A DNA stretch of 64,000 nt from an uncultured Candidatus Saccharibacteria bacterium (GCA_964386905.1 CAYLUP010000001.1:109660-173659), one strand, 5' to 3'. Shown: positions 4,294-29,840, counted from the stretch's first letter. A program made the numbers and translations. Notes: generated by a model not told the origin, from the sequence alone.

Positions 4294-4356
4294 GCATGTA
4301 TCATACTGTACGAGTGGGCACTTTTGCAAATCGAAAACGTGTGGCAAAATAGTGGT

Positions 4357-5589
4357 ATGAAACGAACGTACCTTGATTATGCAGCTTCAACCCCACTTGA
4401 TAGCCATGTTGCTGAAATTATGCTTCCTCTTATGACTGTGAGCTATGGAAACCCTTCGGCAATTCACTTTGATGGTATGCTCGCAAAACGAGCTATTGAC
4501 GGAGCGCGTGAGAAAATTGGCAATGTGCTTGGCGTCTCGAAAACGACATGCGTGTTTACTGCATCGGCAACAGAATCTATAGGCCTTGCGCTCCTTGGTA
4601 CCATTGCATACTGGAAGCATATTCATTCAGGAGAGACTCCAGAGATCCTTCTGTCTCCTATTGAACATGAAGCTGTGCGTGCATACGCACGTGCCCTTGA
4701 AAAACAAGGGGTGATTGTTCGTTATCTTCCAGTGAGTGAGGATGGCGTTATATCTCCAAGAGAGGTTTTTGATCGTCTTACTCCAAACACTGTGCTTGTG
4801 AGTGTTGGTTTGGTAAATAACGAAATAGGAACAATCCAACCTATTTCGGAAATTGCCAGAGAGATCCGCCGATACAAAAAGCTCATTCGTGGAGTAACAA
4901 GAGATAAGAGTCCAATTGGAGACGATGTCTACCCACTTCTTCATACTGACGCAACTCAAGCAGTGAATTATCATGACATGAATATCCCTCGTCTTGGGGT
5001 CGACTTGCTTTCTTGTAACGGAGCAAAAATTTATGGTCCGAAAGGTATCGGTTTGCTCTATCGGGGGACTCATGTGCATATTGAATCACATCTGGTTGGT
5101 GGTGGGCAAGAATTTGGGTTGCGCTCCGGAACAGAAGATACAGCTTCAATAGTAGGGTTTGCAGAGGCGATTGTTCGTGCGCAACAGGCTGCACTTGACG
5201 AAACTGTTCGTATTCTTCCAATAAGGGAACACCTTTTTTCTTTGTTGCATGATGTGGCTTCTTCTCTCCGCATCTCAATGCGCGTCAATGGACCACGTGG
5301 AGATTGTCGAGTTGTAAATAACGTTCATGTGTCATTTGATGGCGTCGACCATGAATATCTTGTTATTTTATTGGACAATGAAGGCTTCTCGCTTTCGACG
5401 AAAAGTGCGTGTGATGAGCGAAAAAGCGAAGAATCTTTCGTGCTTTCAACGCTCTCTGAATATTCAGCTGCCCCCAGACCGCTTTCGGGTATTCGTGTTA
5501 CCATGGGGAAGCATACCCTTCCTTCTGATATTGATGCATTTGCTGGGGCGTTGCGCAAAGTGCTTCCATTAGCACAACATACAATTTAA
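4357..5589 (+). CDS. Cysteine desulfurase / class V aminotransferase (NifS/IscS family)
   Basis: MKRTYLDYAASTPLD start, PLP-lysine context SCNGAKIYGPKGIGLLY; start chosen at MKRTY rather than upstream ORF start 4288. Confidence 0.8.
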   Translation: MKRTYLDYAASTPLDSHVAEIMLPLMTVSYGNPSAIHFDGMLAKRAIDGAREKIGNVLGVSKTTCVFTASATESIGLALLGTIAYWKHIHSGETPEILLSPIEHEAVRAYARALEKQGVIVRYLPVSEDGVISPREVFDRLTPNTVLVSVGLVNNEIGTIQPISEIAREIRRYKKLIRGVTRDKSPIGDDVYPLLHTDATQAVNYHDMNIPRLGVDLLSCNGAKIYGPKGIGLLYRGTHVHIESHLVGGGQEFGLRSGTEDTASIVGFAEAIVRAQQAALDETVRILPIREHLFSLLHDVASSLRISMRVNGPRGDCRVVNNVHVSFDGVDHEYLVILLDNEGFSLSTKSACDERKSEESFVLSTLSEYSAAPRPLSGIRVTMGKHTLPSDIDAFAGALRKVLPLAQHTI

Positions 5590-5599
5590 TTTTCATTTT

Positions 5600-6196
5600 A
5601 TGCATTACGAACCAAAAAATTTTACACATCTTCTCGGTATGAGTGGTTTTTCTGATGAACTCCTTCAAAATCACTTTACGCTGTATGAAGGTTATGTAAA
5701 AAACACGAATACACTCCAAGAGAAATTGCAAAACTTCCCACTTGATGAAACCCCACTTGTTGAACGATCGGAGTTGCAGCGACGATTTGGTTGGGAGTAT
5801 AACGGCATGAAACTCCATGAATACTATTTTGAAAACATGACTCAAAATGAGGGCACCCTTCCATCAACAGAACTCACCAATCATATTGCACATCATTTTG
5901 GTTCATTTGAACGCTGGAAACGCGATTTTGTCCAAATTGGTATGATGAGGGGAATTGGTTGGGTTCTTTTGGCCTGTGATGATGCTGGAGTTTTTCGAAA
6001 CACCTGGGTTAGTGAACATGATGGTGGACTTTTGGTGTCTCACAAGCCAGTGTTCGTGATGGACGTGTTTGAGCACAGTTATATACGAGAGTACGGTCTA
6101 AAAAAGGCCTCGTATATTGATGCGTTTTTTTCACATGCCAATTGGCACGTAGTTGAACAAAGAATTTCAAACGCATTGACTAAGACTGAAATATAG
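5600..6196 (+). CDS. sodA: Superoxide dismutase (Fe/Mn family)
   Basis: N-terminal helical-hairpin domain and C-terminal DVFEHSY (DVWEHAYY-type) motif; four metal-ligand positions alignable. Confidence 0.75.
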   Translation: MHYEPKNFTHLLGMSGFSDELLQNHFTLYEGYVKNTNTLQEKLQNFPLDETPLVERSELQRRFGWEYNGMKLHEYYFENMTQNEGTLPSTELTNHIAHHFGSFERWKRDFVQIGMMRGIGWVLLACDDAGVFRNTWVSEHDGGLLVSHKPVFVMDVFEHSYIREYGLKKASYIDAFFSHANWHVVEQRISNALTKTEI

Positions 6197-6225
6197 TGTA
6201 TTATATTCTATAATTTTTTTGACAT

Positions 6226-8922
6226 ATGCCTCCATTTCAGAATTTTACCGCAAAAGCAAGAGATGCAATTCGTAGAGCGCATGAACTTGCAATAGAAAGG
6301 GAACAGACACATGTGACGCCAATGCACTTGCTGGCTGGTCTTTTGCTGCAAGAAGAAAGCATGATTCTTTCAATAATTGAAAAAATGGAAGTCGATGGTT
6401 CTGCTTTTACTGAACAGGTTATTGAAAAAATTGATGATGGGGGAGAGCGTGTTGGAGGAACAGCAGCATCATATCAGCTTTACCTTACTGCCGAGCTTGC
6501 GCAAGTTCTTGAGGCCTCACAGTCTATTGGACTCGAGTTAAAGGATGAGTTTATTTCTACTGAGCACTTATTGCTTGCTTTGCTTTTTGTCCCATCTCCA
6601 GCACAGAACATACTTGAGTCACACAAGATTTCAAAGGACAAGGTGCTGGTTGCTTTGAAACAAATAAAGGATGCAGAGCAGCAAGGGGGTGCTCATCAAG
6701 ACGGTGCAAACACAAAACAACGTGCAATTTCGAAGTATACGCGATCATTAACTAAACTTGCCGAAGAAGATAAATTAGATCCGGTAATTGGTCGTGATGA
6801 AGAGATTGGTAGACTGATCCAGATACTTTCCCGTAGAACAAAAAATAATCCTATTCTCATTGGTGAAGCAGGCACGGGAAAGACTGCTGTTGTTGAGGGG
6901 CTTGCACAGCGCATAGCAAAGGGGGATATCCCTGAGTTTTTACGTGGAAAAGATCTCGTATCTCTTGATCTTGGCTTGTTGATTGCAGGAACAAAATATC
7001 GAGGTGAGTTCGAGGAGCGCTTGAAAGCAATTATGAAAGAGGTTGAGCGTTCAGAGGGAAAAATTATCCTCTTTATCGACGAGATTCATACGATTGTTGG
7101 AGCAGGTGCTGCTGAAGGGTCGATGGATGCTTCAAATATGCTAAAACCCGCTCTTGCGCGCGGAGAGCTTCGCGCGATAGGCGCAACGACAATAAAAGAA
7201 TACCAAAAGCACATCGAAAAGGACCCCGCACTCACGCGCCGCTTTCAACCGGTATATGTTTCAGAGCCATCAATCGAAGATGCGGTTGCAATTCTTCGTG
7301 GGTTAAAGGAGAAATATGAAATATTCCATGGTGTTAAAATTACAGATGATGCGATTCTTGCAGCAGTGAATTTGTCCTCACGATATATTACAGATCGTTC
7401 ACTTCCAGATAAAGCAGTCGACCTGATTGATGAGGCTGCGTCAGCATTGCGCATTGAATTGGAAAACAAGCCTGCGCTCCTTGAACAAGCACACCGTAAA
7501 ATCATGCGCTTAGAAATCGAAAATGAAGCTTTAAAGCATGAAGCAGAAGGCGAAGGAGAAAGCGCAAAGAAAGCAACTGCTCGGATGAAGGTTATCGAGC
7601 GTGAAATTGCGGATCTTCGTGAAGAGACACGCGAGTTTGAGCTTAAGTGGAAAAACGAAAAAGGTCTCGTCGTTGATCTTAAAAATATTAAAAAAGAGCT
7701 TGAGTCTTTGCGAGTGGAAGCAGAGAATGCTGAACTCAAAAGTGATTTATCTAAGGCAGCGGAAATTCGCTACGGACGAATTCCCCTTTTGACGAAGCAG
7801 CTTGAAGAGAAAACAGGTAAGCTGAAAAAGTTGCAATCATCTCGTCGCATTCTCCATGAAGAAGTTGGCGAGCAGGATATTGCAAAGGTGGTGGCACGTT
7901 GGACCGGAGTTCCTGTTTCGCGCATGCTTGAAGAAGAGGTTGCAAAACTTGCACGAATGGAAGATGAGCTTCGAACGCGTGTTGTTGGACAAGATGATGC
8001 AATCGCAAAAATTGCGAATGCTGTACGACGTTCGCGTGTTGGAATTGGTGACCCACATCGCCCCATTGGCTCATTTCTATTTCTCGGCCCAACCGGAGTT
8101 GGAAAGACTGAATTGACAAAGGCGCTTGCAGCATTTCTTTTTGATGACGAAAAGGCGCTTATCCGGGTTGACATGTCTGAATTTATGGAAAAGCATGCCG
8201 TATCAAAACTCGTCGGGGCTCCTCCTGGATATGTTGGTCATGAGGAAGCTGGCTCATTGACAGAATCTGTCCGTCACCGTCCGTATTCGGTTGTGCTCTT
8301 TGACGAAGTAGAAAAAGCACATCCAGAAGTCTTTAATATACTTCTTCAAGTACTTGATGACGGACGTCTTACGGACGCAAAAGGCCGTGTAGTGAATTTT
8401 AAAAATACGGTTATTGTCATGACTTCAAATATAGGTTCCGAGTTTATCGACAGAATGCAGAGTATTGGCTTTGGGACTGGTGATATCAGCGTCGACGCCG
8501 AATACGCACGAACGAAGGAGAAGGTTATTGAGCATCTTAAAGACTATTTCCGACCTGAATTTATTAACCGACTGGATGAAATTATCAATTTTGATATTCT
8601 TTCTCCTGAAGTTGTTCGAAATATTGTTGATGTACAGATTGGGCGTGTCGCGGAGAGGTTGTCGCATAAAGAAATTTCTTTAATTGTAACGACAGATGCT
8701 CTTGAAAAGCTTGGGAAGGAAGGATACAATCCTCAGTTTGGAGCTCGTCCGCTTCGAAGGCTCATTCAAGAGAAAATTCTTAATCCAGTTGCAAATGCAA
8801 TGATTAAGGAGCGTCTGCTTACCCATGCAACCGTTTCCGTGTCTGTGAAAAACGATGATTTTGTTGTGAAAGTAGAAAAAAAGAAAGGACTTGGTCGAAC
8901 AAAAAAAGTTCGAACGTCATAA
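6226..8922 (+). CDS. clpB: Chaperone ClpB (Hsp100 disaggregase)
   Basis: Two AAA+ modules (GEAGTGKT and GPTGVGKT Walker A; DEIH/DEVEKAH Walker B) separated by long coiled-coil M-domain; Clp N-domain repeats at N-terminus. Confidence 0.95.
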
Positions 8923-9158: not shown

Positions 9159-10178
9159 TTGAAGCCATTTATGTCTACTTTTTGGAATACATTACCACGT
9201 CCATTCTTTGCTGTTGCTCCAATGGCAGACGTCACTGATCCAGCATTTCGTCGAATGTTTTCTCGATATGGAAAACCAGATGTCATGTGGACAGAATTTG
9301 TATCTGCTGATGGCTTGATGAGTGCTGGACGAGACGTTCTTCTTCGTGATCTCCGTTACGTTGAAGAGGAGCGTCCTATCGTTGCACAAATTTTTAGTAG
9401 TACACCAGAACACATTGAAAAGACGGCGGCACTCATACTTGAACTTGGTTTTGATGGTGTCGATATCAACATGGGGTGTCCAGATAAGAATGTTGAGAAA
9501 CAAGGTGCGGGAGCATTTCTGATAAAGAATCCGACCCTTGCACAGGAGATTATTGCTGCAGCAAAACAAGGAGCAAGAAAAAACGAGAAACATATTTCTG
9601 TTTCTGTAAAAACACGAGTTGGATACAATACAATAGAGGTTGATTCATGGATTCCAAAAATTCTCGAATCACGCCCTGATGCATTGACAATTCATGCACG
9701 TACGCGAAAAGAGATGTCTCTTGTTCCTGCTCGATGGGAGCATGTTGGAGAAGTCGTATCGATGGCAAAGGGGAGTGGAATTCCCATTATTGGAAATGGA
9801 GATGTGGTGAGTCGTGAAGATGGTATCCTCCGTGCGCAAGCATCAGGTGCAGACGGAGTTATGGTGGGTAGGGGGATTTTTGGAAATCCGTGGTTTTTTA
9901 ATCCACATATATCCATAAATAACATAACCATACGACAAAGGCTTGAGGTTATGCTGGAGCACACACGGCTGTTTCTTGAACTCAACGAAGGGAGGAAGAG
10001 TTTTGCGGTCATGAAGAAACATTATAAGGCATATGTTCATGGTTTTGATTGTGCGAAAGATCTTCGTATACTTCTTATGAACGCAGATACTCTGGATGAA
10101 ATTGAACATCATGTTTTTACGTTTATTCGTGAGCATGATGATATTGTTTCGCTGACGCCAGGTGCATTTGTGCAATAA
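9159..10178 (+). CDS. dus: tRNA-dihydrouridine synthase
   Basis: FAVAPMADVTDPAFR... TIM-barrel Dus signature, catalytic Cys in INMGCP. Confidence 0.9.
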   Translation: MKPFMSTFWNTLPRPFFAVAPMADVTDPAFRRMFSRYGKPDVMWTEFVSADGLMSAGRDVLLRDLRYVEEERPIVAQIFSSTPEHIEKTAALILELGFDGVDINMGCPDKNVEKQGAGAFLIKNPTLAQEIIAAAKQGARKNEKHISVSVKTRVGYNTIEVDSWIPKILESRPDALTIHARTRKEMSLVPARWEHVGEVVSMAKGSGIPIIGNGDVVSREDGILRAQASGADGVMVGRGIFGNPWFFNPHISINNITIRQRLEVMLEHTRLFLELNEGRKSFAVMKKHYKAYVHGFDCAKDLRILLMNADTLDEIEHHVFTFIREHDDIVSLTPGAFVQ

Positions 10179-10247
10179 GAAGTTTGTTATGCACAGCCTA
10201 TTAATTATTTCGTGGTAGAATACATGAGTACACGAGAGTGTATTGCG

Positions 10248-10559
10248 ATGAACGACTTTCTCAAAATGGACATCTTCTTTTCTGTGACAACGGCTATTGT
10301 CATAGTCTTCGGTGTTTTTGGGGTAGTCGCTTTTTATTACGTCATTCGGATTTTGAAATACATAACACAGATGGCACGCATTGCCTCTGAGGAAGCGGGA
10401 GAGATTCGTAATGATATTGCAGACATTCGTGCTGAGGTCAGAGAAAAGGGTGCACACATCAAACATATCATCCAATTCTTTACTGGCGCACTGAATGCTC
10501 CTGTGCAACAATCGCGAAAAACAAGGTCAAAAACTAAAACTAACAGTAAGAAAACATAA
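10248..10559 (+). CDS. Small membrane protein, DUF948/YtxG-like (N-terminal TM + coiled coil)
   Basis: TM helix FFSVTTAIVIVFGVFGVVAFYYVI followed by charged helical region; architecture like Bacillus YtxG. Confidence 0.4.
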   Translation: MNDFLKMDIFFSVTTAIVIVFGVFGVVAFYYVIRILKYITQMARIASEEAGEIRNDIADIRAEVREKGAHIKHIIQFFTGALNAPVQQSRKTRSKTKTNSKKT

Positions 10560-10563
10560 TCAT

Positions 10564-11109
10564 ATGGTTAAGGCAAAGAAGGCAGGCCTCGTCGCTGGTA
10601 TTGCGGCAGCAGCAATCGGTGTGGCGGCAGCTGGCGCAGCATCATACTATTTCCTAGGTGCAAAAAATGCCGATAAGAATCGCAAAAAAGCAGCTCGTTG
10701 GGCAAAAGACTTGCAGAAGGATGTGATCAAGAAGGCAAAAAAGCTCAAAAAGATTGATGAGCAGGCAATGCGCACGATTATCGACGAGTCTGTAGATGCA
10801 TATACAACCCTGAAGGATGTATCCGCTGATGATCTTCAGCGTGCTGCAACTGAATTGAAATCAGGATGGGAGCATGTCGCAAAGGAAGTTCGCAGGCTTG
10901 TGCGAGCGGACAAGGAGAAAGTTGCCGCTAAGCTCTCTAAAGACATAAAGGTTGTAAAAAAAGCTGTTAAAACTGCAACAAAGAATGTTGTGCCTGCAGT
11001 AAAGAAGGCAGCTAAAGCAAATCTCTCTCTTGTAAAAAAGAGTGTTGCCAACAAGAAGACGTCTTCTAAAAAGGCTGCTCCAAAGAAAATTACTTCAAAG
11101 AAAAAATAA
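10564..11109 (+). CDS. YtxH-like membrane protein with lysine/alanine-rich histone-H1-like C-terminal tail
   Basis: N-terminus MVKAKKAGLVAGIAAAAIGVAAAGAASYYFLGAKNADKNRKKAARWAKDL resembles YtxH family; C-terminus KKAVKTATKNVVPAVKKAAK...SSKKAAPKKITSKKK. Confidence 0.45.
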   Translation: MVKAKKAGLVAGIAAAAIGVAAAGAASYYFLGAKNADKNRKKAARWAKDLQKDVIKKAKKLKKIDEQAMRTIIDESVDAYTTLKDVSADDLQRAATELKSGWEHVAKEVRRLVRADKEKVAAKLSKDIKVVKKAVKTATKNVVPAVKKAAKANLSLVKKSVANKKTSSKKAAPKKITSKKK

Positions 11110-11135
11110 AAAGCCGTTGGCTTTTTATTTTTTTT
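11109..11135 (+). terminator. Rho-independent terminator (aaagccgttggcttt + T-run)
   Basis: Hairpin immediately after stop, long T-run. Confidence 0.7.
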
Positions 11136-11159
11136 CCTGTCTCATGATATACTAAAGCT

Positions 11160-12056
11160 GTGAATATTCAACGAGAATATGTCCATAAATCATATCACAC
11201 TCATCGTTCTTTGGATCGTGTGTTTTTTTTGTGTGCATATGGATATATTACACTCTTTACTGCACTCTATGTGTGTTTTTGGTTTATTCAGCTTCCAGCA
11301 TTTCGAGTAGAACGTATTGTTGTCGACAGTGGAATGAGTCAGTATGCGCAGCGTATTCAAGAAATCTTTCATATGCACACTTCAATGCCTCTGTTTTGGA
11401 TTTTCCCAAGAAAGAATATATTTCTTTTGCCGAAAGATCGCATTTTGAGCGATATTTATGCACTCGATAGCCGTATTCAGCACGCATCTCTTAGCGGGAG
11501 TCATCCCGATATCCTTCTTCGCACGACGATGTTTACTCCATCGTTTCTGTATATTTCGACTTTTTCAGACACCTCTTGTGATTTGGCTGTCTCTCAGTTT
11601 GCATCAGACGAGAACGCTGAACGTGCACCATGTACTGTTTCTTTGGAAGAACATCGTGTGCCTGATGTTTTTTGGGTCACGCAAGATGGATATGTTTTTG
11701 ACAATGCTCCGCAGTTCACCGGTGCGCCACTCCCCGTATTGTCTCAGGATGATGAGATTGAGGTTCGTGTGGGATCGACTCTTTCTCGTGAATACATGTC
11801 ATATGCCCATGAATATATGCGCGAAAGTGCAGAATACGGCTTATCTCTTCGATCAATACATTTTGGAAAAGAAGGAGATGCTGTCGTGAATTATGGATAC
11901 CGTTGGAATGTGCTTGTTTCGCTTCGTAAGTCTGCACACGACACGGTAGATCAGCTCGCACTCGCGCTTAGAGAGCTCGGGACACTTGCTTTTGATGCTG
12001 GCGGCTCTCTTTCACGAATAGACGTTCGATTTGGAAACAAAGTGTTTTACAAATAG
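11160..12056 (+). CDS. ftsQ: Cell division protein FtsQ/DivIB-like (TM + POTRA + beta domain)
   Basis: Single TM (ITLFTALYVCFWFIQL) followed by FRVERIVVDSGMS POTRA-like start and C-terminal ...SRIDVRFGNKVFYK. Confidence 0.45.
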   Translation: MNIQREYVHKSYHTHRSLDRVFFLCAYGYITLFTALYVCFWFIQLPAFRVERIVVDSGMSQYAQRIQEIFHMHTSMPLFWIFPRKNIFLLPKDRILSDIYALDSRIQHASLSGSHPDILLRTTMFTPSFLYISTFSDTSCDLAVSQFASDENAERAPCTVSLEEHRVPDVFWVTQDGYVFDNAPQFTGAPLPVLSQDDEIEVRVGSTLSREYMSYAHEYMRESAEYGLSLRSIHFGKEGDAVVNYGYRWNVLVSLRKSAHDTVDQLALALRELGTLAFDAGGSLSRIDVRFGNKVFYK

Positions 12057-12152
12057 TATAGCTGCTATATTTACAAAAGTATAAAATACGATAGACTGTG
12101 TATACCACATGCGCGTTGTGGGAAAAATAGGGAGACCTATTTTTTTATTGAA

Positions 12153-12560
12153 ATGTTTACATGGTATACTAATTGCATGTCCGTGTTCTCTCTTTTTCAA
12201 TCATATCTTCTTTGGCACTACGTCTATGCGGTTCGTGACGGATACGCACTTTTGAGAAATGCATTCTGGTTCATTGGAAGGATATTTTCTGTTCCCTTAC
12301 TCATTCGCACATTATTTTCCCCCTGGCATCGTCTTCATGAAGAAGTGCCGCGTTTTTTTGAAAACCCAGGAGAATTTTTTACCAATATCATCGTGAACAT
12401 CATTATGCGATGTGTTGGTTTCTCTGTCCGTTTCGCATACCTTCTCTTGGCATTCATGTTGTGCATTGTTATCGTCGCGTTTTGGATATGTGCTTTGCCG
12501 CTGTGGTATGCGCTACCTCTTTTGTCTACATTATTCTTCCTCGTACCGCTGTTTTTATGA
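12153..12560 (+). CDS. Polytopic membrane protein (135 aa), translationally coupled to downstream Clp-like ATPase
   Basis: 3-4 hydrophobic helices; stop TGA 12558-12560 overlaps ATG 12557-12559 of next gene (ATGA). Confidence 0.5.
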   Translation: MFTWYTNCMSVFSLFQSYLLWHYVYAVRDGYALLRNAFWFIGRIFSVPLLIRTLFSPWHRLHEEVPRFFENPGEFFTNIIVNIIMRCVGFSVRFAYLLLAFMLCIVIVAFWICALPLWYALPLLSTLFFLVPLFL

Positions 12561-15106
12561 TTTTTCAAATAACGCACAAGTACACAACACGGTTTTATTC
12601 TGCAGTATGCTCACTAGACAGAATTTTTTCTCCACGCGCACGCCATATTGTTTCTTGGAGTGCTGGATTTTTTGTTTTCGTTTTTTTGTGCTTGTCTGTT
12701 CTGATAGTCTGGGGACAGCTTGCTCTTCCTCCTTGGGCTTCTTTGTCACTTTCTTACCTCCTCGCTTTCGTTGATCATATCCCAGGTATTGATATTACAA
12801 ATGCAAGTTTTTTATATCGTTTACCAATTAGTGAACACTTTTCTGTTGCCTTTCCGTTTGTTTCAGGGCTTGGGTTTTGGAATATTATATTTGGGTTGAG
12901 TATTGCTACGTATCTTTATACAGCGTTGCTGACAATATTTGCGCGTTCTGCCTATTTTCAAGATCTTGCCTCAGCAGAGTTGTTTCATGAGCGTGTCCTT
13001 TCATATGTAGTTTCTGAAATTTTTCAACAAGCTGAAGAAGGTGACGTGCTCCGATCTTTTGTTCAACATCCAATTGGAAAGCACTTTTTTCAGCGTATTG
13101 AAGTGACACAGAGTGAATTGGGACAATTTCTTGTTACGCGAATGCACATCGTTGACTATCGTGAAGTCCCGAGTGTGTATCGTGTCCATACAATATCGGA
13201 ACTTATCCTTTCTCTCTGTCAATCTGAGGAAGTTGCGTTGTGGTTGCAGCGAAAGGGAATACATTCTGAAGATATTGCTATTGCGGCTTCGTGGGTTGAG
13301 TCAGAATATCGTATCCAAAAAGAACAAGAAAGGTGGTGGGGAAGAGAGGCGCTTGCGCGAATTCCTGTTTTTGGTGAGGAAATAGCATATGGATATGGAT
13401 TACTCATAAAAAAATTCACGACACCAGTGCTCCCGGTGGAGTCTCATCTCCGGTTTACGGGCGTAAGTGCGGAGGATCCTGTGGCACAATTACTGGAGTT
13501 ACTTCAACGCTCCGATGGGACAAATGCACTTATAATTTCCCCAAGTATTGCGCAGGGAATGGATATTATGCAGTCTGCGGTGGCTGAGATTTCTCGTTCA
13601 CAACATCCAAGATTTACACACAAAAAATGTCTTCTGTTCGACATTCCGTATTTTGAGCAACACGCAACTACTGTTAGCGAATTTGAGAGCATTCTTACGT
13701 CGATTCTTCTCGACGCACTCCGCTCGGGGAATTGCATACTTATTATTGACAATATTACCGCATTGATCCAGCGCGGACTTCTCCTTGGAGCTGATGTTGA
13801 CGGAATCCTCCGTCCCATTCTTGAATCAGCAGCTCTTCAAGTGATTGCACTTACGAGTATAGAGCAATTTCATGGACCTCTTTCTGCTCATCAGAATATT
13901 ACTCACGCATTTCATGAATTACACATTGAACAACTCTCTGATATCGAGCATCTTCGTAGACTTATTGTGTATGTAGAGCATCTTGAGCGTGAACAATCGG
14001 TACTCTTTTCAGTGCGTGCAGTGCACCAGATTATTACTGACGCAAATCGTGTTCGCACAAATCGCACACTTTTTGATCAGTCACGAGATATTCTTGCTGG
14101 CATCGTATCGACTACAGAGAAGAGTGCGCCACTCCTTATCACTAAAGATGATGTTGATGAATATGTTGCACAACACACACATATACCGATTGGCCCAACT
14201 GGCAAGGATGAAGAGATCCAGTTGCTCAACCTGGAGAAAGTCTTGCATCAATCTGTTGTTGGCCAAGATAAGGCTATCCATGCGATTTCTCAATCATTAC
14301 GAAGAAGTCGTTTGGGGTTACGTAATGAAAACCGTCCGATTGCCTCGTTCCTATTCTTTGGTCCAACTGGTGTAGGGAAAACAGAAGTCGCAAAAACAAT
14401 TGCGCGGGAATATTTTCATAGTGAAGAAAATATGCACCGTTTTGATATGACAGAATTTTCTGATCATACTGCTTTAGAACGCTTTATTGGTGGTGTAGAT
14501 TCCGGAGATGGTGCACTAGTGACCTGCCTTCTCGAGAGGCCATACGCGGTTTTGCTCCTTGATGAATTCGAGAAAGCGAACAGAAATATTCACGATCTCT
14601 TCTTGCAAATTATTGATGAAGGGTATTTCCATGATGTGAGTTCGAGAAAGATAAATTGTACAAATCTTGTGATTATTGCGACGAGCAATATTGCAGCGGA
14701 GGAAATCTATGCACACATCCGCAATGGAACAGTGCTTACAGATGTGCACGAAAGACAGTTAATTGCTCATACTATTGAACAAGGTCTTCTCAGGTCTGAA
14801 TTATTGAATCGATTTGATGAACTCATTTTGTTTCAGCCTCTGTCATCAGATGCATTGCGGCGTATTGCAGAGCTCATGCTATCGAAATTTGCAAAGCGTT
14901 TACTTGAAAAAGGAGTTGTGCTACAGATTAACGACGTTCTACTTCAATATCTGATGAGTCATGGAGTCGATCCCTTGTTTGGAGCACGTCCAATGCAGCG
15001 TGTTATTCAAAATAGTATCGAGCCTATCATTGCAGAGAAGCTTCTTCGGCACGAATTATCATCCGGTATGAGTTTTGCTTTTACAGAAGCTGATCTTCCA
15101 AAATAA
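12557..15106 (+). CDS. Membrane-anchored Clp/Hsp100-family AAA+ ATPase with degenerate NBD1 and intact NBD2
   Basis: N-terminal TM helices, Clp_N-like helical region, D1-like module lacking Walker A (SPSIAQGM where GEAGTGKT expected) but retaining D1 small-domain homology; D2 intact: [39 protein letters not shown] begins at 12410 but ATG at 12557 overlaps upstream stop. Confidence 0.75.
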   Translation: MIFQITHKYTTRFYSAVCSLDRIFSPRARHIVSWSAGFFVFVFLCLSVLIVWGQLALPPWASLSLSYLLAFVDHIPGIDITNASFLYRLPISEHFSVAFPFVSGLGFWNIIFGLSIATYLYTALLTIFARSAYFQDLASAELFHERVLSYVVSEIFQQAEEGDVLRSFVQHPIGKHFFQRIEVTQSELGQFLVTRMHIVDYREVPSVYRVHTISELILSLCQSEEVALWLQRKGIHSEDIAIAASWVESEYRIQKEQERWWGREALARIPVFGEEIAYGYGLLIKKFTTPVLPVESHLRFTGVSAEDPVAQLLELLQRSDGTNALIISPSIAQGMDIMQSAVAEISRSQHPRFTHKKCLLFDIPYFEQHATTVSEFESILTSILLDALRSGNCILIIDNITALIQRGLLLGADVDGILRPILESAALQVIALTSIEQFHGPLSAHQNITHAFHELHIEQLSDIEHLRRLIVYVEHLEREQSVLFSVRAVHQIITDANRVRTNRTLFDQSRDILAGIVSTTEKSAPLLITKDDVDEYVAQHTHIPIGPTGKDEEIQLLNLEKVLHQSVVGQDKAIHAISQSLRRSRLGLRNENRPIASFLFFGPTGVGKTEVAKTIAREYFHSEENMHRFDMTEFSDHTALERFIGGVDSGDGALVTCLLERPYAVLLLDEFEKANRNIHDLFLQIIDEGYFHDVSSRKINCTNLVIIATSNIAAEEIYAHIRNGTVLTDVHERQLIAHTIEQGLLRSELLNRFDELILFQPLSSDALRRIAELMLSKFAKRLLEKGVVLQINDVLLQYLMSHGVDPLFGARPMQRVIQNSIEPIIAEKLLRHELSSGMSFAFTEADLPK

Positions 15107-15137
15107 AAAGATGAGCACCATAAGTGCTCATCTTTTT
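15107..15137. terminator. Bidirectional hairpin terminator (aaaagatgagcacc ataa ggtgctcatctttt)
   Basis: Perfect 13-bp stem with A-run one side and T-run the other; sits between convergent Clp-like gene and tRNA-Tyr. Confidence 0.75.
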
Positions 15138-15141
15138 ATTG

Positions 15142-15225
15142 TGCGCCGGGTAGGATTCGAACCTACGTAGCCCATTGGGCGACAGATTTACAGTCTGTTG
15201 CGATTGACCGCTCCGCCACCGACGC
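15142..15225 (-). tRNA. tRNA-Tyr (anticodon GTA), class II
   Basis: Acceptor GCGTCGG/CCGGCGC (one G-U), anticodon stem ACAGA/TCTGT loop CTGTAAA, long variable arm, T-arm GTAGG-TTCGAAT-CCTAC. Confidence 0.85.
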
Positions 15226-15317
15226 AGTGAAAACTGTTTTTGTATTATACGGCCAAAATTGAAAATTGCAAGCAATGTGTCGCATTTGTTTCCACAGTGT
15301 GTTTTTCATATTTGTTG

Positions 15318-15323
15318 TATAAT
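15318..15323 (+). promoter_or_regulatory. -10 box TATAAT about 10 nt upstream of histidine-kinase ATG (near-leaderless transcript)
   Basis: ttgttgTATAATagatacaaatATG. Confidence 0.4.
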
Positions 15324-15333
15324 AGATACAAAT

Positions 15334-17148
15334 ATGGAAGTCAGTCCGCTTACAGCGGGTAAGGCGCAATTAGGGAAAGTTACACCACCACATGGAGGAA
15401 GACTCTTAATTACTCTTACCAGTGTCCTTTTGTTCGTCATGATACTCCTCGTCACAGTGTTGACGTATTTTTTGCCAGAAACATTTTTAAATAAATATAC
15501 GACGTCTATTGTTGCAAGTGTCGTTGGTGCATTTTCTATTGTGATTATCATCATGATGCGTATAACCTTGAAGCCCTATTTTGCATATGCAGAGCGCGCT
15601 ATCGAAGTTGTGCAAACCGTTGCTGTTTCAAGTGATCGACATGCTCGTGCGATTATTGGCTCCGGTCTGGGGTATTGGGATTACGATATCATCAGCGGCG
15701 CCGTGTATTTTTCGCCTCATATGATGGCATTACTCGGATATGGGGAACAAGAAAGAAATGATCGCATTGATTTTTGGTATAGTCTTATTCATCCTGACGA
15801 CGTTGAAGGTGTTCGCCGTACAATGACCTATCATTTTGACAGAAGAACGCCGGAATACTCTATCGAATATCGTGTTCGTCGTGCAAATGGAGAGTATATC
15901 TGGGTCGTCGATAAGGGGCGAGCAGAATATGGACTTGACGGGAAAGCCACAAAGCTCTCCGGGGTAACACAAGACATGACGAATCTTCGTCGTGTTCAAG
16001 AAGTTTTGGACGCACGTACTCGCGAGCTTGAAGTCGCAACGAAAAAAATCGTCGAGGAATCTCGAAATGCATTGAAGTTTAAGATGGCAACTGATGGTTC
16101 TGTTCAGGCTGTTGCGATTACTGATCCTGAAGGAAAAATTGTCTACGTGAATCCCGCATGGTCTCAGCTGAATGGATATCTTTTTGCGGAGGTCAATGGC
16201 CAGACGCACCGAATTCTTAAGAGTGCAGACACGCGAGAGGAACTTTTTGCTCAAATGTATCAGGCAATTATGGCAGGAAATGCATTTAAAACAGAAGATA
16301 TTTTTAATATTCGAAAAGATGGTACAAAGTATCAAGCTGCGTTAACCATCGTCCCTATTCGAGAAGATGGAAAAGTGATTTTCTACGTTGGTCTTTCTGA
16401 AGATATTACTCAAAGGAAGGAGGTAGATAAAGCAAAAACAGAGTTCGTTTCATTAGCATCTCATCAACTTCGCACGCCGTTGTCGGCAATTCGATGGTAT
16501 TCCGAAATGCTCTTGTCAAAATATGTTGGTGAATTAAATGAAAAGCAGAGACAGTATGTTCAAGAAATCTATCATGGAAATATCCGTATGGTAGACCTTG
16601 TTAATGCGCTTTTGAATACATCGCGAATCGATCTCGGTACTTTTGCCGTTGAACCCGAGCCCGTTAGTTTGATTGAAATTGCAGAGTCAGTTCTTTCGGA
16701 GCTTACTCCTCAAATCATTGAGCGAAAGCAGGAGATCGAGAAAGTATTTCAAGCTGCTCCGGCTGTCTACAATGCCGACCCTAAACTAATTCGCATCGTC
16801 TTCCAAAACCTTCTCTCAAACTCGGTGAAATATACACAAGTGGGAGGAAAAATTGGAGTCGAAATTAGCACAAAAGGTTCTGATCTCTACTTGAGTGTTT
16901 GGGATAACGGATACGGTATTCCACGACACCAACAAAGTCAGATGTTCCAAAAATTGTTCCGTGCTGATAATGTGCGACAAAAGGATACGGAGGGTACTGG
17001 TTTGGGTATGTATATCATTAAGGCCATTGTTGAATCGGCGAAAGGCCGAATCTGGTTTGATTCTGAAGAAAATAAGGGAACAAAATTCCACGTATTAATG
17101 CCACTTTCTGGCATGATTAAGAAGACGGGAACAAAAGGGCTTTCATAA
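15334..17148 (+). CDS. Sensor histidine kinase with N-terminal TM helices and tandem PAS domains (HisKA + HATPase_c)
   Basis: H-box SHQLRTPLSAIRWYSEMLL, N/G1/G2 boxes (NLLSNSVKYT, DNGYGIP, GTGLGM), two PAS-like segments; start at MEVSPL downstream of TATAAT. Confidence 0.85.
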   Translation: MEVSPLTAGKAQLGKVTPPHGGRLLITLTSVLLFVMILLVTVLTYFLPETFLNKYTTSIVASVVGAFSIVIIIMMRITLKPYFAYAERAIEVVQTVAVSSDRHARAIIGSGLGYWDYDIISGAVYFSPHMMALLGYGEQERNDRIDFWYSLIHPDDVEGVRRTMTYHFDRRTPEYSIEYRVRRANGEYIWVVDKGRAEYGLDGKATKLSGVTQDMTNLRRVQEVLDARTRELEVATKKIVEESRNALKFKMATDGSVQAVAITDPEGKIVYVNPAWSQLNGYLFAEVNGQTHRILKSADTREELFAQMYQAIMAGNAFKTEDIFNIRKDGTKYQAALTIVPIREDGKVIFYVGLSEDITQRKEVDKAKTEFVSLASHQLRTPLSAIRWYSEMLLSKYVGELNEKQRQYVQEIYHGNIRMVDLVNALLNTSRIDLGTFAVEPEPVSLIEIAESVLSELTPQIIERKQEIEKVFQAAPAVYNADPKLIRIVFQNLLSNSVKYTQVGGKIGVEISTKGSDLYLSVWDNGYGIPRHQQSQMFQKLFRADNVRQKDTEGTGLGMYIIKAIVESAKGRIWFDSEENKGTKFHVLMPLSGMIKKTGTKGLS

Positions 17149-17170
17149 AAACACCTCCAAGGGTGTTTTT
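17147..17170 (+). terminator. Hairpin terminator (aaaacacctccaagggtgttttt)
   Basis: Stem-loop + T-run after HK stop. Confidence 0.6.
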
Positions 17171-17216
17171 ATGTGGATATGCAAAGAGTTTATTTCTGAT
17201 ACAATATGATAATCAT

Positions 17217-17633
17217 ATGAATTCACAAGAACGTACCCAGACTGTTCTCGTCGTCGAGGATGAAAAACAGCTTTCATTTGCTGTTACGGAGGCACTTCAT
17301 GCACACGGATTTACCGTATACAACGCAATTTCTTTAGATACAGCAATAGAGCAATTGCAATCAATTGGTACTGTTGATGTTATTTGGCTTGACCACTACT
17401 TGATGGGCGCAGGGAACGGTATCGATTTTGTGGTAAAATTAAAGAGTGACCCGAGATGGAGTCAGATTCCTGTATTTATTGTTTCAAATACAGCATCAAC
17501 ACAAAATGTTCATTCATATATTCAGCTTGGCGTAACAAATTATTATACAAAGGCTGATTATGATATTGGACAAATTATTAGTGATATCAAGTATACGCTT
17601 GCGCAGAATGCGTCGCTTACGCATACAATATAA
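17217..17633 (+). CDS. Single-domain response regulator (CheY-like receiver only)
   Basis: VLVVEDE...DVIWLDHYLMG phosphoacceptor Asp context; no output domain; start at MNSQERT. Confidence 0.8.
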   Translation: MNSQERTQTVLVVEDEKQLSFAVTEALHAHGFTVYNAISLDTAIEQLQSIGTVDVIWLDHYLMGAGNGIDFVVKLKSDPRWSQIPVFIVSNTASTQNVHSYIQLGVTNYYTKADYDIGQIISDIKYTLAQNASLTHTI

Positions 17634-17638
17634 ACATT

Positions 17639-18022
17639 ATGGCAACATTGTTAAATAAAAAAGTTCTTGTCACTGAAGATGAAGCGCCGCTTCGGAATGC
17701 CGTCTCTGATATTTTGACATTTGAGGGCTTCACCGTATTTCAAGCGAAAAATGGACAAGAAGGTCTTGATATCGCTTTAAAAGAGCATCCAGATCTCATC
17801 CTTCTTGATTTGATGATGCCGGTCATGGATGGCCTGACGATGCTCCAAAAGCTTCGTGAGGATGAATGGGGAAAAACTGCTGCGGTTATTCTTTTGACAA
17901 ATATCAATGATCCAGAAAAAGTCGCTGCTGCAACAGATGCGGGGACGTATGATTTTCTTGTGAAGTCTGATTGGAATATCGAGGATGTTGTTGGCAAAAT
18001 CAAAACCCGACTCGGTGTCTAA
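17639..18022 (+). CDS. Single-domain response regulator (CheY-like receiver only)
   Basis: KVLVTEDEAPLRN...LILLDLMMPVMDG...VKSDW receiver motifs; 127 aa. Confidence 0.85.
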   Translation: MATLLNKKVLVTEDEAPLRNAVSDILTFEGFTVFQAKNGQEGLDIALKEHPDLILLDLMMPVMDGLTMLQKLREDEWGKTAAVILLTNINDPEKVAAATDAGTYDFLVKSDWNIEDVVGKIKTRLGV

Positions 18023-22503: not shown

Positions 22504-22636
22504 ATAAACAGTCGGGGTTTTGTACCATCGTGGTACAGTTACCCTAAAGCTCTTCAATGCAGCCCTGCATAACACATGATGTACTGTGTGGGGCTGGTCG
22601 CACCACTTACTGGTGCTCACAGGCCAAGGAGGCCAC

Positions 22637-23704
22637 ATGTTCAAGAACATCATTTTCGCGATCATCTTCGCGGTGATCGGGTCCATGAGCCTTCTGGCTC
22701 AGCCGAGCACCACGAGTGTTTCGGCCGGTGTCACCGACATTCCCGGGGCCTACCAGACCCTGGATGACATCACCGCCGCCTACAAGGCCGGTCACCTGGA
22801 GTACTACACTCCTCGTGACCCGCGTGGAAAGAACGTGAATGCCCCGGACGGGAAGAGAATTCTCGCCGCTCCCATGGGAAGGCTCACGTTCGCGGAGCTT
22901 CAGATCTTGGGCGGAAAGGCTTGGGTCGCAATCAAGCCGACGGATATCGTCCGTCGTCTTGCGGGCCGAACCACGCCTTTTGCTCTCGACTGGTGTGGGA
23001 ATCGGATCTATCGGATCGCATATCCGAATCCTCTCCCCACGCGTGAGCTGCCTCCTCCGGTCAAGCCCGAAGCTGGAACTGTCACCGTGAACAACGATGT
23101 CAATGTTCCAGTGCAGCCTGTCACTGAGGTGGTTGAACAAGGAGGAGATACGGTTGTCAACAATCGTATCACTCTCCCGGCCGCTTCTGCTCCCGTGGTC
23201 TACAGGAAGGGCAACGTAACGGTGAATAACCGCATCGTCGTTGCTCCCCCCCAGACTCAGGTTGGGCCTCCGGCCCCCGCCACTGTCGTTCGGCCGCTGC
23301 CTCCTCCCATCGTCGCTCCTTCGAGTGACCAGATGGGTCCGCAGGCTCCGCGCCTGCAGGTTCCTGCTCCCGCGCCCTACCAGCCTCAGCCCTACACCCC
23401 TGTGGTGAAGAAGGGTTGGTCGACCGGAACGAAGATCCTGTTTGGTGTTGGCATTGCTGGCGGTGCCTACCTTCTCTCCAAGGCCTTCAAAAAGGAAGAC
23501 AAGAATGGCCCCCCGAGCGGTGATACGCTTGGAGAGGGTGGCGCTCCCTCCGGTGGCCTTGCTGCCCCTCTCAAAATGGGGAGTGGCGACGCTGCGCTCC
23601 TGCGGAGCATGCAGGGGCAGGCATTTCGGCCTGGGTTCAACCCCGCCGAGTTCGCCGCCGCTAATGGCCGCGGTGTATATATTAGCATCGGCCGTCGGTT
23701 TTAG
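22637..23704 (+). CDS. GC-rich secreted/membrane protein: signal peptide, VTVNN-repeat beta region, proline-rich segment, one TM, short C-terminal tail
   Basis: Strong SD (ccaAGGAGGccac) then ATG 22637; signal peptide MFKNIIFAIIFAVIGSMSLLAQP; codon usage (GC-rich third positions) completely unlike neighbours; antisense ORF 22607-23725 is a GC-driven shadow. Confidence 0.7.
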   Translation: MFKNIIFAIIFAVIGSMSLLAQPSTTSVSAGVTDIPGAYQTLDDITAAYKAGHLEYYTPRDPRGKNVNAPDGKRILAAPMGRLTFAELQILGGKAWVAIKPTDIVRRLAGRTTPFALDWCGNRIYRIAYPNPLPTRELPPPVKPEAGTVTVNNDVNVPVQPVTEVVEQGGDTVVNNRITLPAASAPVVYRKGNVTVNNRIVVAPPQTQVGPPAPATVVRPLPPPIVAPSSDQMGPQAPRLQVPAPAPYQPQPYTPVVKKGWSTGTKILFGVGIAGGAYLLSKAFKKEDKNGPPSGDTLGEGGAPSGGLAAPLKMGSGDAALLRSMQGQAFRPGFNPAEFAAANGRGVYISIGRRF

Positions 23705-23752
23705 ACGGCCGCAGGCAAAACGCATGAGGATTTTCCCTCTGCTAGTACTATC

Positions 23753-23819: not shown

Positions 23820-23917
23820 TATATTGCATATCACGATATTTCCTTGTAGAACTTGGAATATCTGTGAAAGGTATTATTAATACGCCGAAAGGCACAGAAC
23901 ACAACAAAAAAATTATT

Positions 23918-28513: not shown

Positions 28514-28611
28514 CACACGAGAATGTCTTGTGTGTTTTTTGTTATACACAGTATGGAAACATGATATGCATGATATACTATGGGCAGCATTTACATTGTG
28601 CTTCTTTACCC

Positions 28612-29838
28612 ATGTCTTCACCTCGTGTACTTATGCTTGGATGGGAATTGCCGCCACACAACAGTGGCGGTCTTGGCGTTGCCTGTGAGGGGCTGACGAA
28701 GGGCCTTGCGGACCTTGGTGTCCAGATTGATTTTCTCTTACCATTTGCTGGAGTTGATGATACGCATCCCTATATGCGCGTACATGCAATGGTTAATGCA
28801 GCGGTAGCAGACAAGGAGACACTTGCACAATATGCGCGCCTGCTTGCATCCCCATATATGTCTGAAGAGGAATATGCGACTTTAATCCAGAAAACTCCCG
28901 GGCTATCGCTATATGGTGCGTCACTTTTTCAGCTTGTTGAGCTTTTTGTGGATTATGCCGAGAGAAAATCACGAGACCTCTCTTTCGATGTTATTCACGC
29001 GCATGATTGGTTGACATATTTAGCCGGTATCCGTATCAAGGAGCGTACAGGAAAACCTCTTATTGTACATGTTCATGCAACAGAATACGACAGGACAGGG
29101 GACAATCCAAACCCCCGTATAAAAGAAATTGAACTTCTCGGCCTTCATGTTGCAGATGCTGTGATTACTGTCTCTGGACACACAAAAAAGATCGTTGCAA
29201 CCAAATATCATATCGAAGAAGACAAGATTTTTGTCGTTCATAATGGAGTTTTGCCTATTCATCCTGTGAAGCGTCTTCCCCCTGCCATTGGCCTTCTTCG
29301 CGCTCAGGGTTATCATATTGTTCTTTTTGTCGGCCGCATCACTATACAAAAGGGGCCAGAATATTTTTTGTATATGGCTCAAAAAGTGTTGCACTATATT
29401 CCAAAGACTGTTTTTGTTGTATCTGGATCAGGGGATATGGAACACCAAATGATGACGCTTGCTGCGTCTCTCGGGATTAGCCAAAGTGTAATGTTTGCAG
29501 GATTCCTTCGCGGGAATGAACTCATGGAGGTGTATGGTGGATCAGATGTGTACGTCATGCCTTCCGTTTCGGAGCCATTCGGAATTACCGCTCTCGAAGC
29601 AGCACAACATGGCTCTTCACTCCTCCTTTCAAAACAGTCTGGTGCGCGAGAAGTTATTGGTGGTGCATTTGTTGCAGACTTTTGGGATACCGATGAAATG
29701 GCAAATATTGTTGTAAATATTATCCGAAGTCCTGGGCTTCGAAAGACCATTCGTGACCACGCGAAAGAAGATGCTGCACGTGCGACTTGGGATCTCGCAG
29801 CAGAAAAAACCTTAGCAGTCTATTCACGATACTCATAA
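28612..29838 (+). CDS. Glycosyltransferase, glycogen/alpha-glucan synthase-like (GT4/GT5 fold)
   Basis: N-terminal LMLGWELPPHNSGGLGVACEGL (KTGGL-like) and C-terminal GT-B domain E-x7-E region; start at MSSPRV. Confidence 0.7.
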   Translation: MSSPRVLMLGWELPPHNSGGLGVACEGLTKGLADLGVQIDFLLPFAGVDDTHPYMRVHAMVNAAVADKETLAQYARLLASPYMSEEEYATLIQKTPGLSLYGASLFQLVELFVDYAERKSRDLSFDVIHAHDWLTYLAGIRIKERTGKPLIVHVHATEYDRTGDNPNPRIKEIELLGLHVADAVITVSGHTKKIVATKYHIEEDKIFVVHNGVLPIHPVKRLPPAIGLLRAQGYHIVLFVGRITIQKGPEYFLYMAQKVLHYIPKTVFVVSGSGDMEHQMMTLAASLGISQSVMFAGFLRGNELMEVYGGSDVYVMPSVSEPFGITALEAAQHGSSLLLSKQSGAREVIGGAFVADFWDTDEMANIVVNIIRSPGLRKTIRDHAKEDAARATWDLAAEKTLAVYSRYS

Positions 29839-29840
29839 TT

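Follow-up and report, generated by a model that had tools for sequence, protein, structure and literature searches.

The 64,000-nucleotide stretch of DNA analysed here, referred to as the window, comes from an uncultured Candidatus Saccharibacteria bacterium (GCA_964386905.1, CAYLUP010000001.1:109660-173659; positions are counted from its first letter). Between positions 12,153 and 15,106 it carries a two-gene unit, composed of one small membrane protein gene (open reading frame A, ORF A; its product is called the partner) and one gene for a Clp/Hsp100-type ATPase (ORF B). The ORF B protein falls into an extensive family of class-I Clp/Hsp100 AAA+ proteins that are anchored in the membrane and have not yet been given a name; the two-gene unit is widespread in bacteria of the candidate phyla radiation (CPR) and has apparently never been described. 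Hsp100/Clp motors are classically soluble machines, which act either as disaggregases or as ClpP feeders. With a probability of roughly 0.6, we propose that ORF B and its partner form a membrane-anchored remodeller, which is driven by the second AAA+ tier (D2), works with an obligate membrane adaptor and is independent of ClpP and DnaK. The initial annotation of the region had suggested an additional membrane-tethered Hsp100 paralogue with a dead first tier (D1) and an active D2; sequence, profile searches, structure prediction and family comparison all supported this view. The analysis further revealed what the annotation had not included: the extent and conservation of the family, the obligate nature of the partner gene and the recurrent FtsQ gene beside it.

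Two-tier architecture of the membrane-anchored ATPase

In the 849-residue ORF B protein, Pfam recognizes only AAA_2 (PF07724, residues 593-755) and ClpB_D2-small (PF10431, residues 762-837), both above their gathering scores. The NCBIfam models of ClpB, ClpA, ClpV, ClpG and ClpK all match far under their cut-offs: the scores are 306 bits against a cut-off of 1232 for ClpB (TIGR03346), 288 against 993 (TIGR02639) and 216 against 1350 (NF008263) for ClpA, and 228 against 885 for ClpV/TssH. The alignment to the ClpA model spans residues 306-838. In phmmer searches of the PDB, D2 matches Thermus ClpB with 247 bits, whereas residues 303-517 match ClpB D1 with just 23-29 bits. The Pfam Torsin model gives a faint match (E=0.013, 16 bits against a cut-off of 27).

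The AlphaFold2 model of ORF B, built on a 70-sequence family alignment, has a predicted local distance difference test score (pLDDT) of 89.3 and a predicted template-modelling score of 0.82. It contains two long helices (residues 26-54 and 101-133), an eight-helix N-domain, a lower-confidence linker and two AAA+ tiers. About 575 residues of D1 and D2 superpose on the protomers of ClpC, ClpB, ClpC1 and ClpA in Foldseek, with target-normalised template-modelling (TM) scores of 0.77-0.82. By its D2 and its two-tier fold, ORF B belongs to the Clp/Hsp100 class-I superfamily; by the tested defining features, it lies outside ClpB, ClpA/ClpC, ClpV and Torsin, and membership of ClpB, ClpA or ClpC is refuted.

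The two long helices coincide with hydropathy peaks at residues 30-57 and 98-130, and both hydropathy and the model indicate two N-terminal membrane helices, given earlier as two to three. Helix 1 is preceded by a positively charged segment; the presence of five Lys or Arg residues among the first 32 fits a hairpin with both ends inside the cell, which would place the entire ATPase in the cytoplasm. The 45-residue insert between the helices is restricted to the subclade of the query; in most family members it is replaced by a short loop.

The N-domain follows helix 2 directly. Modelled alone, it reaches a pLDDT of 91, and its top Foldseek matches in the PDB are all Clp N-domains (Plasmodium HSP101, ClpC, ClpC1 and ClpA; TM scores 0.45-0.51, E 0.4-2), while unrelated matches reach TM scores of only ∼0.2-0.3. 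No Clp_N match was found by sequence, neither with Pfam nor in a profile search of the PDB, and hhalign gave a probability of 1.3% against the N-domain of the ClpB encoded in the window. The Clp_N-like region of the initial annotation thus has weak support from fold resemblance and none at the sequence level, and the predicted N-domain may be described as a divergent Clp_N-like fold. The N-domain is connected to D1 through one Trp-rich linker, with the family consensus ERWWSRExLxRIPGIGKDWAYGxTYxLEKY.

Alignment to ClpB showed that D1 keeps its homology, whereas its Walker A motif GEAGTGKT is replaced by SPSIAQGM, as had been read from the DNA before. The Walker B dipeptide DE is changed to DN, the Arg finger RRF to HAF and the pore loop KYRGEFE to TTVSEFE. 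D1 has therefore kept its fold and lost its catalytic and pore residues, and from its sequence it is predicted not to hydrolyse ATP. A sequencing error or frameshift hiding an intact P-loop is ruled out, since the reading frame is unbroken and aligns collinearly with ClpB, and the P-loop is missing from the closest homologues as well. The M-domain is absent: the D1 small-domain region is 76 residues in length, compared to 207 in the window ClpB, and the model is without the coiled coil. The same holds for 98 of the 121 full-length family representatives over which all motif counts were taken.

Different from D1, D2 retains all its catalytic motifs, GPTGVGKT, LLLDEFEKA, IIATSN, NRFDE and FGARPMQR. 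Its earlier description as fully intact stands for these motifs but not for the pore loop, FIGGVDSGDGAL, which is five residues shorter than that of the window ClpB and contains no Tyr; as this loop grips the substrate, the difference is relevant to the mechanism. Because the NRFD Arg finger and sensor 2 are conserved, the ring is predicted to be self-sufficient for hydrolysis. An [ILV]-G-[FL] ClpP-docking loop was searched for between sensor 1 and the Arg finger of D2, and none is present in the query; the spacer between these motifs is fixed at 34 residues in the family, and the tripeptide occurs in one of the 121 members. The expected lack of an IGF/LGF-type loop was thus borne out in ORF B and in 120/121 of its family. 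A ClpP partner is ruled out by the absent docking loop, and a DnaK-coupled disaggregase by the absent M-domain.

The partner gene and the ATPase family

An ORF scan of the window found ORFs at 12153-12560 (+) and 12410/12557-15106 (+). ORF A ends with ...CTGTTTTTATGA; its TGA stop codon sits within the ATGA at 12557-12560 that starts ORF B, as read in TTTTTATGATT. Both the overlap and the 849-residue product begun at 12557 agree with the initial annotation, and the NCBI record (P0001) has the same form; alignment with the ORF B homologues begins at about residue 16. The start of ORF A is more likely the ATG at 12177, giving 127 residues rather than the 135 counted from 12153, because the NCBI form (P0004) and every homologue begin at that column.

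The partner had been taken for a polytopic membrane protein. A membrane hairpin is indeed predicted, but the protein is not polytopic throughout, as about 85 residues form a soluble or amphipathic part. This N-terminal part of ∼85 residues is conserved and holds the motifs WHY..., FS.P.L.RTLF.PW.R and VN..MR.VG...R; in the family alignment the conserved residues are W21, Y23, F45, S46, R60, N82, R86, G89 and R93, together with the RTLFxPWxR motif. The C-terminus is one 50-residue hydrophobic block with arginines just ahead of it in the charge profile. The block reads as a two-helix membrane hairpin with its turn at a conserved W..LP, which suggests a cytoplasmic head mounted on a membrane hairpin. 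Sequence and profile searches of Pfam, NCBIfam and the PDB returned no relative of the partner family.

A homologue of the partner gene lies directly 5' of the ATPase gene, on the same strand, in 81/81 related loci with upstream DNA; in the seven related loci without it, the ATPase is at the contig edge. Since the pair recurs in every testable related locus, it is not a product of chance. An in-frame ATPase start is located between -8 and +12 nucleotides from the partner stop in 74 of 76 non-redundant loci, and 27 of the 76 have the same 4-nucleotide overlap as the window. In a single related locus (L022:4919-5974) partner gene and ATPase are apart, with a gap of ∼660 nucleotides. These sequence comparisons indicate that the partner gene is obligate and usually translationally coupled upstream of the ATPase. 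Promoter and terminator scans of 10100-15400 stayed at chance level, so the operon boundaries are drawn from gene spacing alone.

The size of the family was assessed by an exhaustive HMMER search with the N-terminal 537 residues as query, leaving out the ClpB-like D2. It yielded 1061 cluster representatives at E<=1e-3 and 334 at E<=1e-10, mostly of 780-860 residues; word-indexed searches with the same 537 residues or with the family alignment gave almost no matches. Scanning one genome per species for the family-specific D2 peptides LLLDEFEK and Vx[ND]LFLQILD, we found at least 541 family loci. Among the best 80 of them none bears a non-CPR name; nearly all are labelled CPR/Patescibacteria and a few just 'bacterium'. 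The labels include Paceibacterota, Parcubacteria and Minisyncoccia, many generic 'Saccharibacteria', and Taylor-, Lloyd-, Vogel-, Kaiser-, Yonath-, Nomura-, Zambryski- and Andersenbacteria. The literature was searched in full text, outside most subscription journals, and no paper describing the ATPase or partner family turned up.

Like the query, none of the 121 representatives has a canonical D1 Walker A motif; 29 carry GxxGxGK followed by Met, Leu or Ile, and in the remainder the motif is eroded, the closest homologues reading APNKKIAE, APSVELAL and SDSHDLAL at this site. In the twelve commonest forms the D1 Walker B dipeptide reads DD, DN or EN, never DE, and the D1 pore position is aromatic in 0/121. 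Other D1 motifs (EANALLVG, AGNIILVI, PYL.S..LQ.IAL and FTY.A...SA.RYF...DKA.DLL) are well conserved. Because D1 is otherwise well conserved while its P-loop is lost across the family, the dead D1 is an old and maintained family trait, not the decay of a single genome. In D2, GPTGVGKT is present in 111/121 members, and LLLDEFEK, ATSN, NRFD and FGARP are also kept. Compared to ClpB, the D2 pore loop is always shortened by 4-6 residues; its key position is Phe in 57 members and Tyr in 6, is deleted in 33 and is occupied by other residues elsewhere, with Val in the query. ORF B shares all the features of the proposed family: the membrane hairpin, a non-canonical D1, the LLLDEFEK-type D2 with a short loop, and neither M-domain nor ClpP loop.

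A second clade was identified by scanning metagenomes with the partner motif RTLF[AS]PW[RKH]R, which gave 265 loci. The best 80 of these (L089-L168) are mostly on soil or rhizosphere contigs with 45-60% GC and lengths of up to 1.2 Mb; L121:4001-6720 and L112, on a contig of 1.24 Mb, are examples. In some 50 loci with at least about 850 nucleotides downstream, a family ATPase follows the partner directly in all but one (L125), which has just a weak, displaced ATPase match. The second-clade ATPases share the membrane hairpin and are without an M-domain; their D2 loop lacks Tyr (aromatic in 0/31). Their D1 P-loop is canonical in 29/31 (e.g. GPDGIGKTS), their D1 Walker B dipeptide is DD in 23/31 and DE in 4/31, and the D1 Arg finger is absent. 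No FtsQ gene was found near these loci; genes for a MacB-type ABC transporter, a CvpA-trypsin fusion, BacA and UMP kinase are conserved in their vicinity. The source records name the proteins 'ClpC' or 'AAA family ATPase [Candidatus Dormibacteraeota]', and one metagenome-assembled genome is labelled Ca. Dormibacteraeota. At L144:4351-6716 the family ATPase is present as two ORFs (4351-6174 and 6168-6716), through a frameshift or an assembly error. D1 thus forms a decay series, from an intact P-loop with mostly DD, through GxxGxGK plus a hydrophobic residue, to the fully eroded state of the window protein, which is useful for asking why an inactive AAA+ tier is retained.

Genomic surroundings of the pair

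The coordinates of the pair, its domains and its two most relevant neighbours are collected in Table 1.

Table 1. Positions of the two-gene unit, of the domains and motifs of ORF B and of neighbouring genes in the window
Feature	Position	Strand	Basis
Small partner gene (ORF A)	12177..12560, or 12153..12560 with earlier start	+	ORF scan, homologue starts
ORF B, Clp/Hsp100-type ATPase, membrane-anchored, 849 aa (P0001)	12557..15106	+	ORF scan, Pfam, NCBIfam, AlphaFold2, Foldseek
ATGA overlap, partner-gene stop codon inside ATPase-gene start	12557..12560	+	DNA sequence
Membrane helix 1 (residues 26-54)	12632..12718	+	hydropathy, AlphaFold2
Insert between membrane helices (residues 55-100), short helix and beta hairpin	12719..12856	+	alignment, AlphaFold2
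Membrane helix 2 (residues 101-133), continuous into N-domain	12857..12955	+	hydropathy, AlphaFold2
Helical N-domain (residues 135-258), divergent Clp_N-like fold (weak)	12959..13330	+	AlphaFold2, Foldseek (weak)
Trp-rich linker, family-specific, query QERWWGREALARIPVFGEEIAYGYGLLIKKF	13325..13417	+	family alignment
Degenerate D1 module (residues 303-520), no M-domain	13463..14116	+	alignment, AlphaFold2, Foldseek
D1 Walker A relic SPSIAQGM	13538-13561	+	alignment to ClpB
D1 pore-loop relic	13661-13690	+	alignment to ClpB
D1 Walker B relic IIDN	13736-13759	+	alignment to ClpB
D1 Arg-finger relic HAF	13898-13918	+	alignment to ClpB
D2 large domain, active (predicted)	14213..14836	+	Pfam AAA_2 E=1.2e-32, alignment
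D2 Walker A	14360-14383	+	motif
D2 pore loop FIGGVDSGDGAL, shortened, Tyr-less	14483-14518	+	alignment to ClpB
D2 Walker B	14552-14578	+	motif
D2 sensor 1	14672-14689	+	motif
D2 Arg finger	14795-14821	+	motif
D2 small domain	14840..15067	+	Pfam ClpB_D2-small E=1.7e-20
Sensor 2 FGARPMQR within D2 small domain	14978-15001	+	motif
FtsQ/DivIB-like gene, 298 aa, N-terminal membrane helix	11160..12056	+	orthologue profile
ClpB-type gene, 898 aa, context rather than part of the unit	6226..8922	+	Pfam, TIGR03346

The gene upstream of the pair encodes an FtsQ/DivIB-like protein. Six distinct FtsQ structures are hit by a profile built from 48 orthologues, the best being 8hhf_Q (E=2.4e-8), with 5z2w, 2vh1 and 6h9n at about 1e-7; among the orthologues, 26/48 carry Pfam POTRA_1 and 9/48 FtsQ_DivIB_C. 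On its own, the window copy matches nothing in Pfam or NCBIfam, so its assignment to FtsQ/DivIB is made through the family profile. Gene neighbours were counted in 52 loci with both flanks. FtsQ adjoins the pair in 35 of them, while 33 have seryl-tRNA synthetase (SerRS) and 33 have Dus; the order SerRS-FtsQ-small-ATPase-Dus is found in 29, and the pair stands alone in 17. In two rearranged orders, Dus-FtsQ-small-ATPase (in the window Dus-...-FtsQ-small-ATPase) and SerRS-small-ATPase-FtsQ-Dus, the adjacency of FtsQ is kept, and in many loci the gap between FtsQ and the small gene is short, about 10-25 nucleotides. Because the housekeeping genes SerRS and Dus are linked equally, inherited gene order explains much of the FtsQ adjacency, which may thus reflect ancestry rather than a functional link; its persistence in the rearranged orders gives mild support for such a link. 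As a proof of function the adjacency was downgraded in view of the equally frequent linkage of SerRS and Dus.

In the window, ftsW-murG (45106-47501, +) is followed by a glutamyl-tRNA synthetase and an M23 peptidase gene, not by murC-ddl-ftsQ-ftsA-ftsZ. The division and cell-wall cluster is fragmented, and the sole FtsQ-like gene of the window is the one that adjoins the ATPase pair.

The ClpB-type gene that the initial annotation had placed upstream is present with its full domain set: Clp_N, AAA, AAA_lid_9, AAA_2 and ClpB_D2-small, with the M-domain and two intact nucleotide-binding domains. It aligns with the full length of TIGR03346 at 1180 bits, slightly below the cut-off of 1232; this divergent ClpB might go unnamed under strict annotation rules.

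Other features around the pair were recorded as well. A tRNA-Tyr gene lies on the minus strand at 15141-15225, directly after ORF B; an Rfam scan of the window returned tRNAs only. Upstream, at 10495-11109 (+), a 204-residue Lys/Ala-rich protein with one N-terminal hydrophobic helix has no family match; the closest relative of the locus (L002) has a 184-residue gene at the matching site between Dus and FtsQ. Just 3' of the pair, at 15259-18022 (+), a PAS/PAS histidine kinase is encoded together with two receiver-only response regulators, and the same trio follows the pair in L002:12028-14541. Farther away, 22586-23704 (+) and 22607-23725 (-) are open on both strands over 372 codons, with 53% GC compared to 43% for the genome; the product of the plus strand begins like a signal peptide, after an internal Met, is rich in Pro and Val in its middle and has a C-terminal hydrophobic helix. 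It matches no Pfam family and is likely to be a surface protein. The 860-residue product of 23864-26446 (+), which contains FN3-like, PhoD_N/purple-acid-phosphatase-N-like and DUF11 repeats, is probably a large cell-surface protein. A glucan-metabolism run at 28528-35139 (+) comprises a GT4/GT5 glycosyltransferase, GH57, GH15, a phosphoglucose-isomerase-like gene and a ROK kinase.

Proposed working and alternatives

Comparison with known systems places ORF B between several machines. Like ClpB/Hsp104, it has the two-tier N-D1-D2 arrangement, a ClpB_D2-small domain and no ClpP loop, and its D2 is ∼36% identical to that of the window ClpB with all catalytic motifs. Different from ClpB/Hsp104, it is anchored in the membrane, has no M-domain, carries a dead D1 and is missing both pore-loop Tyr residues; since the M-domain is absent, no coupling to DnaK is expected. 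ClpC, ClpC1 and ClpA give the best overall fold matches, ClpA also has no long M-domain, and the N-domains of ClpC and ClpA resemble that of ORF B at TM scores of ∼0.5; the idea of a dedicated adaptor, such as ClpS or MecA on the N-domain, fits an obligate partner as well. Unlike ClpA/ClpC, however, ORF B is without the IGF/IGL docking loop (as are 120/121 of the family), its D1 is dead, it has a membrane anchor, and its partner, a membrane protein, is related to neither ClpS nor MecA. Human CLPB/Skd3 likewise has one active D2-type ATPase domain (PDB matches with E of about 1e-29 to 1e-31), but there ankyrin repeats replace N-D1, the pore-loop Tyr is kept and the protein is soluble after processing. 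No type VI secretion system genes, which would accompany a ClpV, are present in the window or related loci.

Outside the Clp proteins, Pex1/Pex6 is a double-ring AAA+ machine with an inactive, structural D1 ring and a D2 motor, which together with a small membrane protein pulls its client from the membrane. In outline, established knowledge of Pex1/Pex6 with Pex15/Pex26 resembles the working proposed here, although Pex1/Pex6 belongs to the classic type II AAA+ clade, is eukaryotic, is recruited by its anchor instead of carrying its own membrane helices, and has aromatic D2 pore loops. FtsH and Msp1/ATAD1 are hexameric AAA+ proteins carried by N-terminal membrane helices on the cytoplasmic face, with the pore entry toward the bilayer, as predicted for ORF B; they differ in that they are classic AAA proteins with one ring and aromatic pore loops, FtsH has a protease domain, and homology with ORF B is confined to the AAA+ core. 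Torsin with LAP1/LULL1 is an AAA+ protein related to Clp D2 with non-canonical pore loops, membrane association and dependence on a membrane partner, whereas it has a single AAA+ domain, a partner-supplied Arg finger and a location in the lumen of the endoplasmic reticulum; in ORF B the Arg finger and sensor 2 are conserved. By analogy, the nearest functional counterparts would be Pex1/Pex6-Pex15 and FtsH/Msp1, with Torsin-LAP1 as a counterpart for the dependence on a partner.

In our preferred reading, ORF B would form a two-tier hexamer on the cytoplasmic face of the membrane, with the N-domain and dead D1 beside the bilayer and D2 toward the cytoplasm. This orientation follows from the model, where only one residue separates the end of helix 2 (residue 133) from the start of the N-domain (residue 135). 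D1 would serve as a structural ring, as in Pex1/Pex6, and D2 as the only motor. The partner, probably made in roughly equal amounts, would act as a membrane-embedded adaptor or regulator, comparable to MecA/ClpS for ClpC/ClpA or Pex15/Pex26 for Pex1/Pex6; it is read in this way because its conserved head would lie at the membrane surface and it is probably made in step with the ATPase. Hydrolysis of ATP by D2 would remodel or pull membrane-embedded or membrane-associated clients, and ORF B would neither feed ClpP nor be controlled by DnaK as a disaggregase, as it has no ClpP loop and no M-domain. In ClpA, ClpB and ClpC, substrates enter at the N-domain/D1 face. An entry face toward the membrane fits extraction, the first role offered in the initial annotation, with the geometry of FtsH and Msp1, and is the wrong way round for pushing outward. 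From the frequent FtsQ neighbour, divisome or envelope proteins are the leading candidates for clients.

Several observations weigh against this remodeller. The main difficulty is its weak and variable pore loops: in the D2 loop the query has Val in place of an aromatic residue, 33/121 members show a deletion there, and the loop is aromatic in 0/31 of the second clade, which weakens a model of processive threading. The motor may therefore have a poor grip with short strokes, or may be a switch instead of a translocase. In addition, FtsQ adjacency is absent in 17/52 loci and in the entire second clade, and FtsQ travels with SerRS and Dus; the Clp_N-like assignment is also weak (Foldseek E 0.4-2 and no sequence-profile match).

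These same observations bear on the alternatives. If the D2 ring altered the membrane partner or a complex bound to it without any translocation, as a switch or scaffold in the manner of Torsin-LAP1/LULL1, the absence of the canonical Tyr from both pore loops, the short, variable D2 loop with its deletions and its lack of aromatics in the second clade, the obligate small membrane partner and the faint Torsin match would all be accommodated. However, NRFD and sensor 2 are strictly conserved, unlike in Torsin, Phe or Tyr is still found in the D2 loop of about half of the members, and the entire two-tier Clp architecture is retained; we regard a non-threading switch as quite unlikely. A remodeller dedicated to the divisome, which assembles, disassembles or turns over FtsQ or its complexes at the septum, also appears rather unlikely. 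It would account for the FtsQ/DivIB gene that adjoins the pair in 35 of 52 loci and across three gene orders, for the short gaps between FtsQ and the small gene and for a window ftsW-murG that is not followed by ftsQ; but 17/52 loci and all second-clade loci have no adjacent FtsQ, no further division gene is nearby, and the equally frequent linkage of the unrelated housekeeping genes SerRS and Dus may point to inherited synteny.

An export motor, the second role offered in the initial annotation, which would push unfolded proteins through a channel built of the helices and the partner on the PTEX model of HSP101-EXP2, is very improbable. Membrane attachment and a membrane partner would suit it, and the top fold match of the N-domain is that of HSP101, which is one of many Clp N-domains; yet the N-terminal anchor joins the N-domain directly, so that the usual exit face, D2, points to the cytoplasm. 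Moreover, most members have minimal external loops, the pore loops are weak, and no conserved secretion genes are nearby in the loci surveyed. The chance that ORF B is an ordinary divergent ClpB/ClpC/ClpA chaperone or ClpP partner, or a decaying pseudogene, is close to negligible. Database names such as 'ATP-dependent Clp protease ATP-binding subunit' and 'ClpC' speak for the former and are misleading for the genes of this family, considering the sub-cut-off scores, the absent M-domain and ClpP loop, the dead D1 and the membrane helices; the large conserved family, the intact ORFs and the high-confidence fold exclude decay.

To our knowledge, the envelope biology of CPR bacteria is almost wholly undescribed. 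As a tentative and, taken as a whole, doubtful extension of the preferred remodeller, the pair could be a CPR membrane machine of an undescribed kind: one Hsp100 hexamer with a structural D1, a Tyr-less D2 motor and a permanent small membrane adaptor, which extracts or reorganises division and envelope proteins (e.g. FtsQ complexes) without ClpP or DnaK, while the second clade records the stepwise death of D1. If the membrane-anchored remodeller is correct, this branch would extend the Clp/Hsp100 repertoire to machines with a D1 ring that is structural only, with non-canonical pore loops and with a small membrane protein as obligate partner, and it would provide a handle on the way CPR bacteria treat their membrane proteins, possibly including those of cell division.

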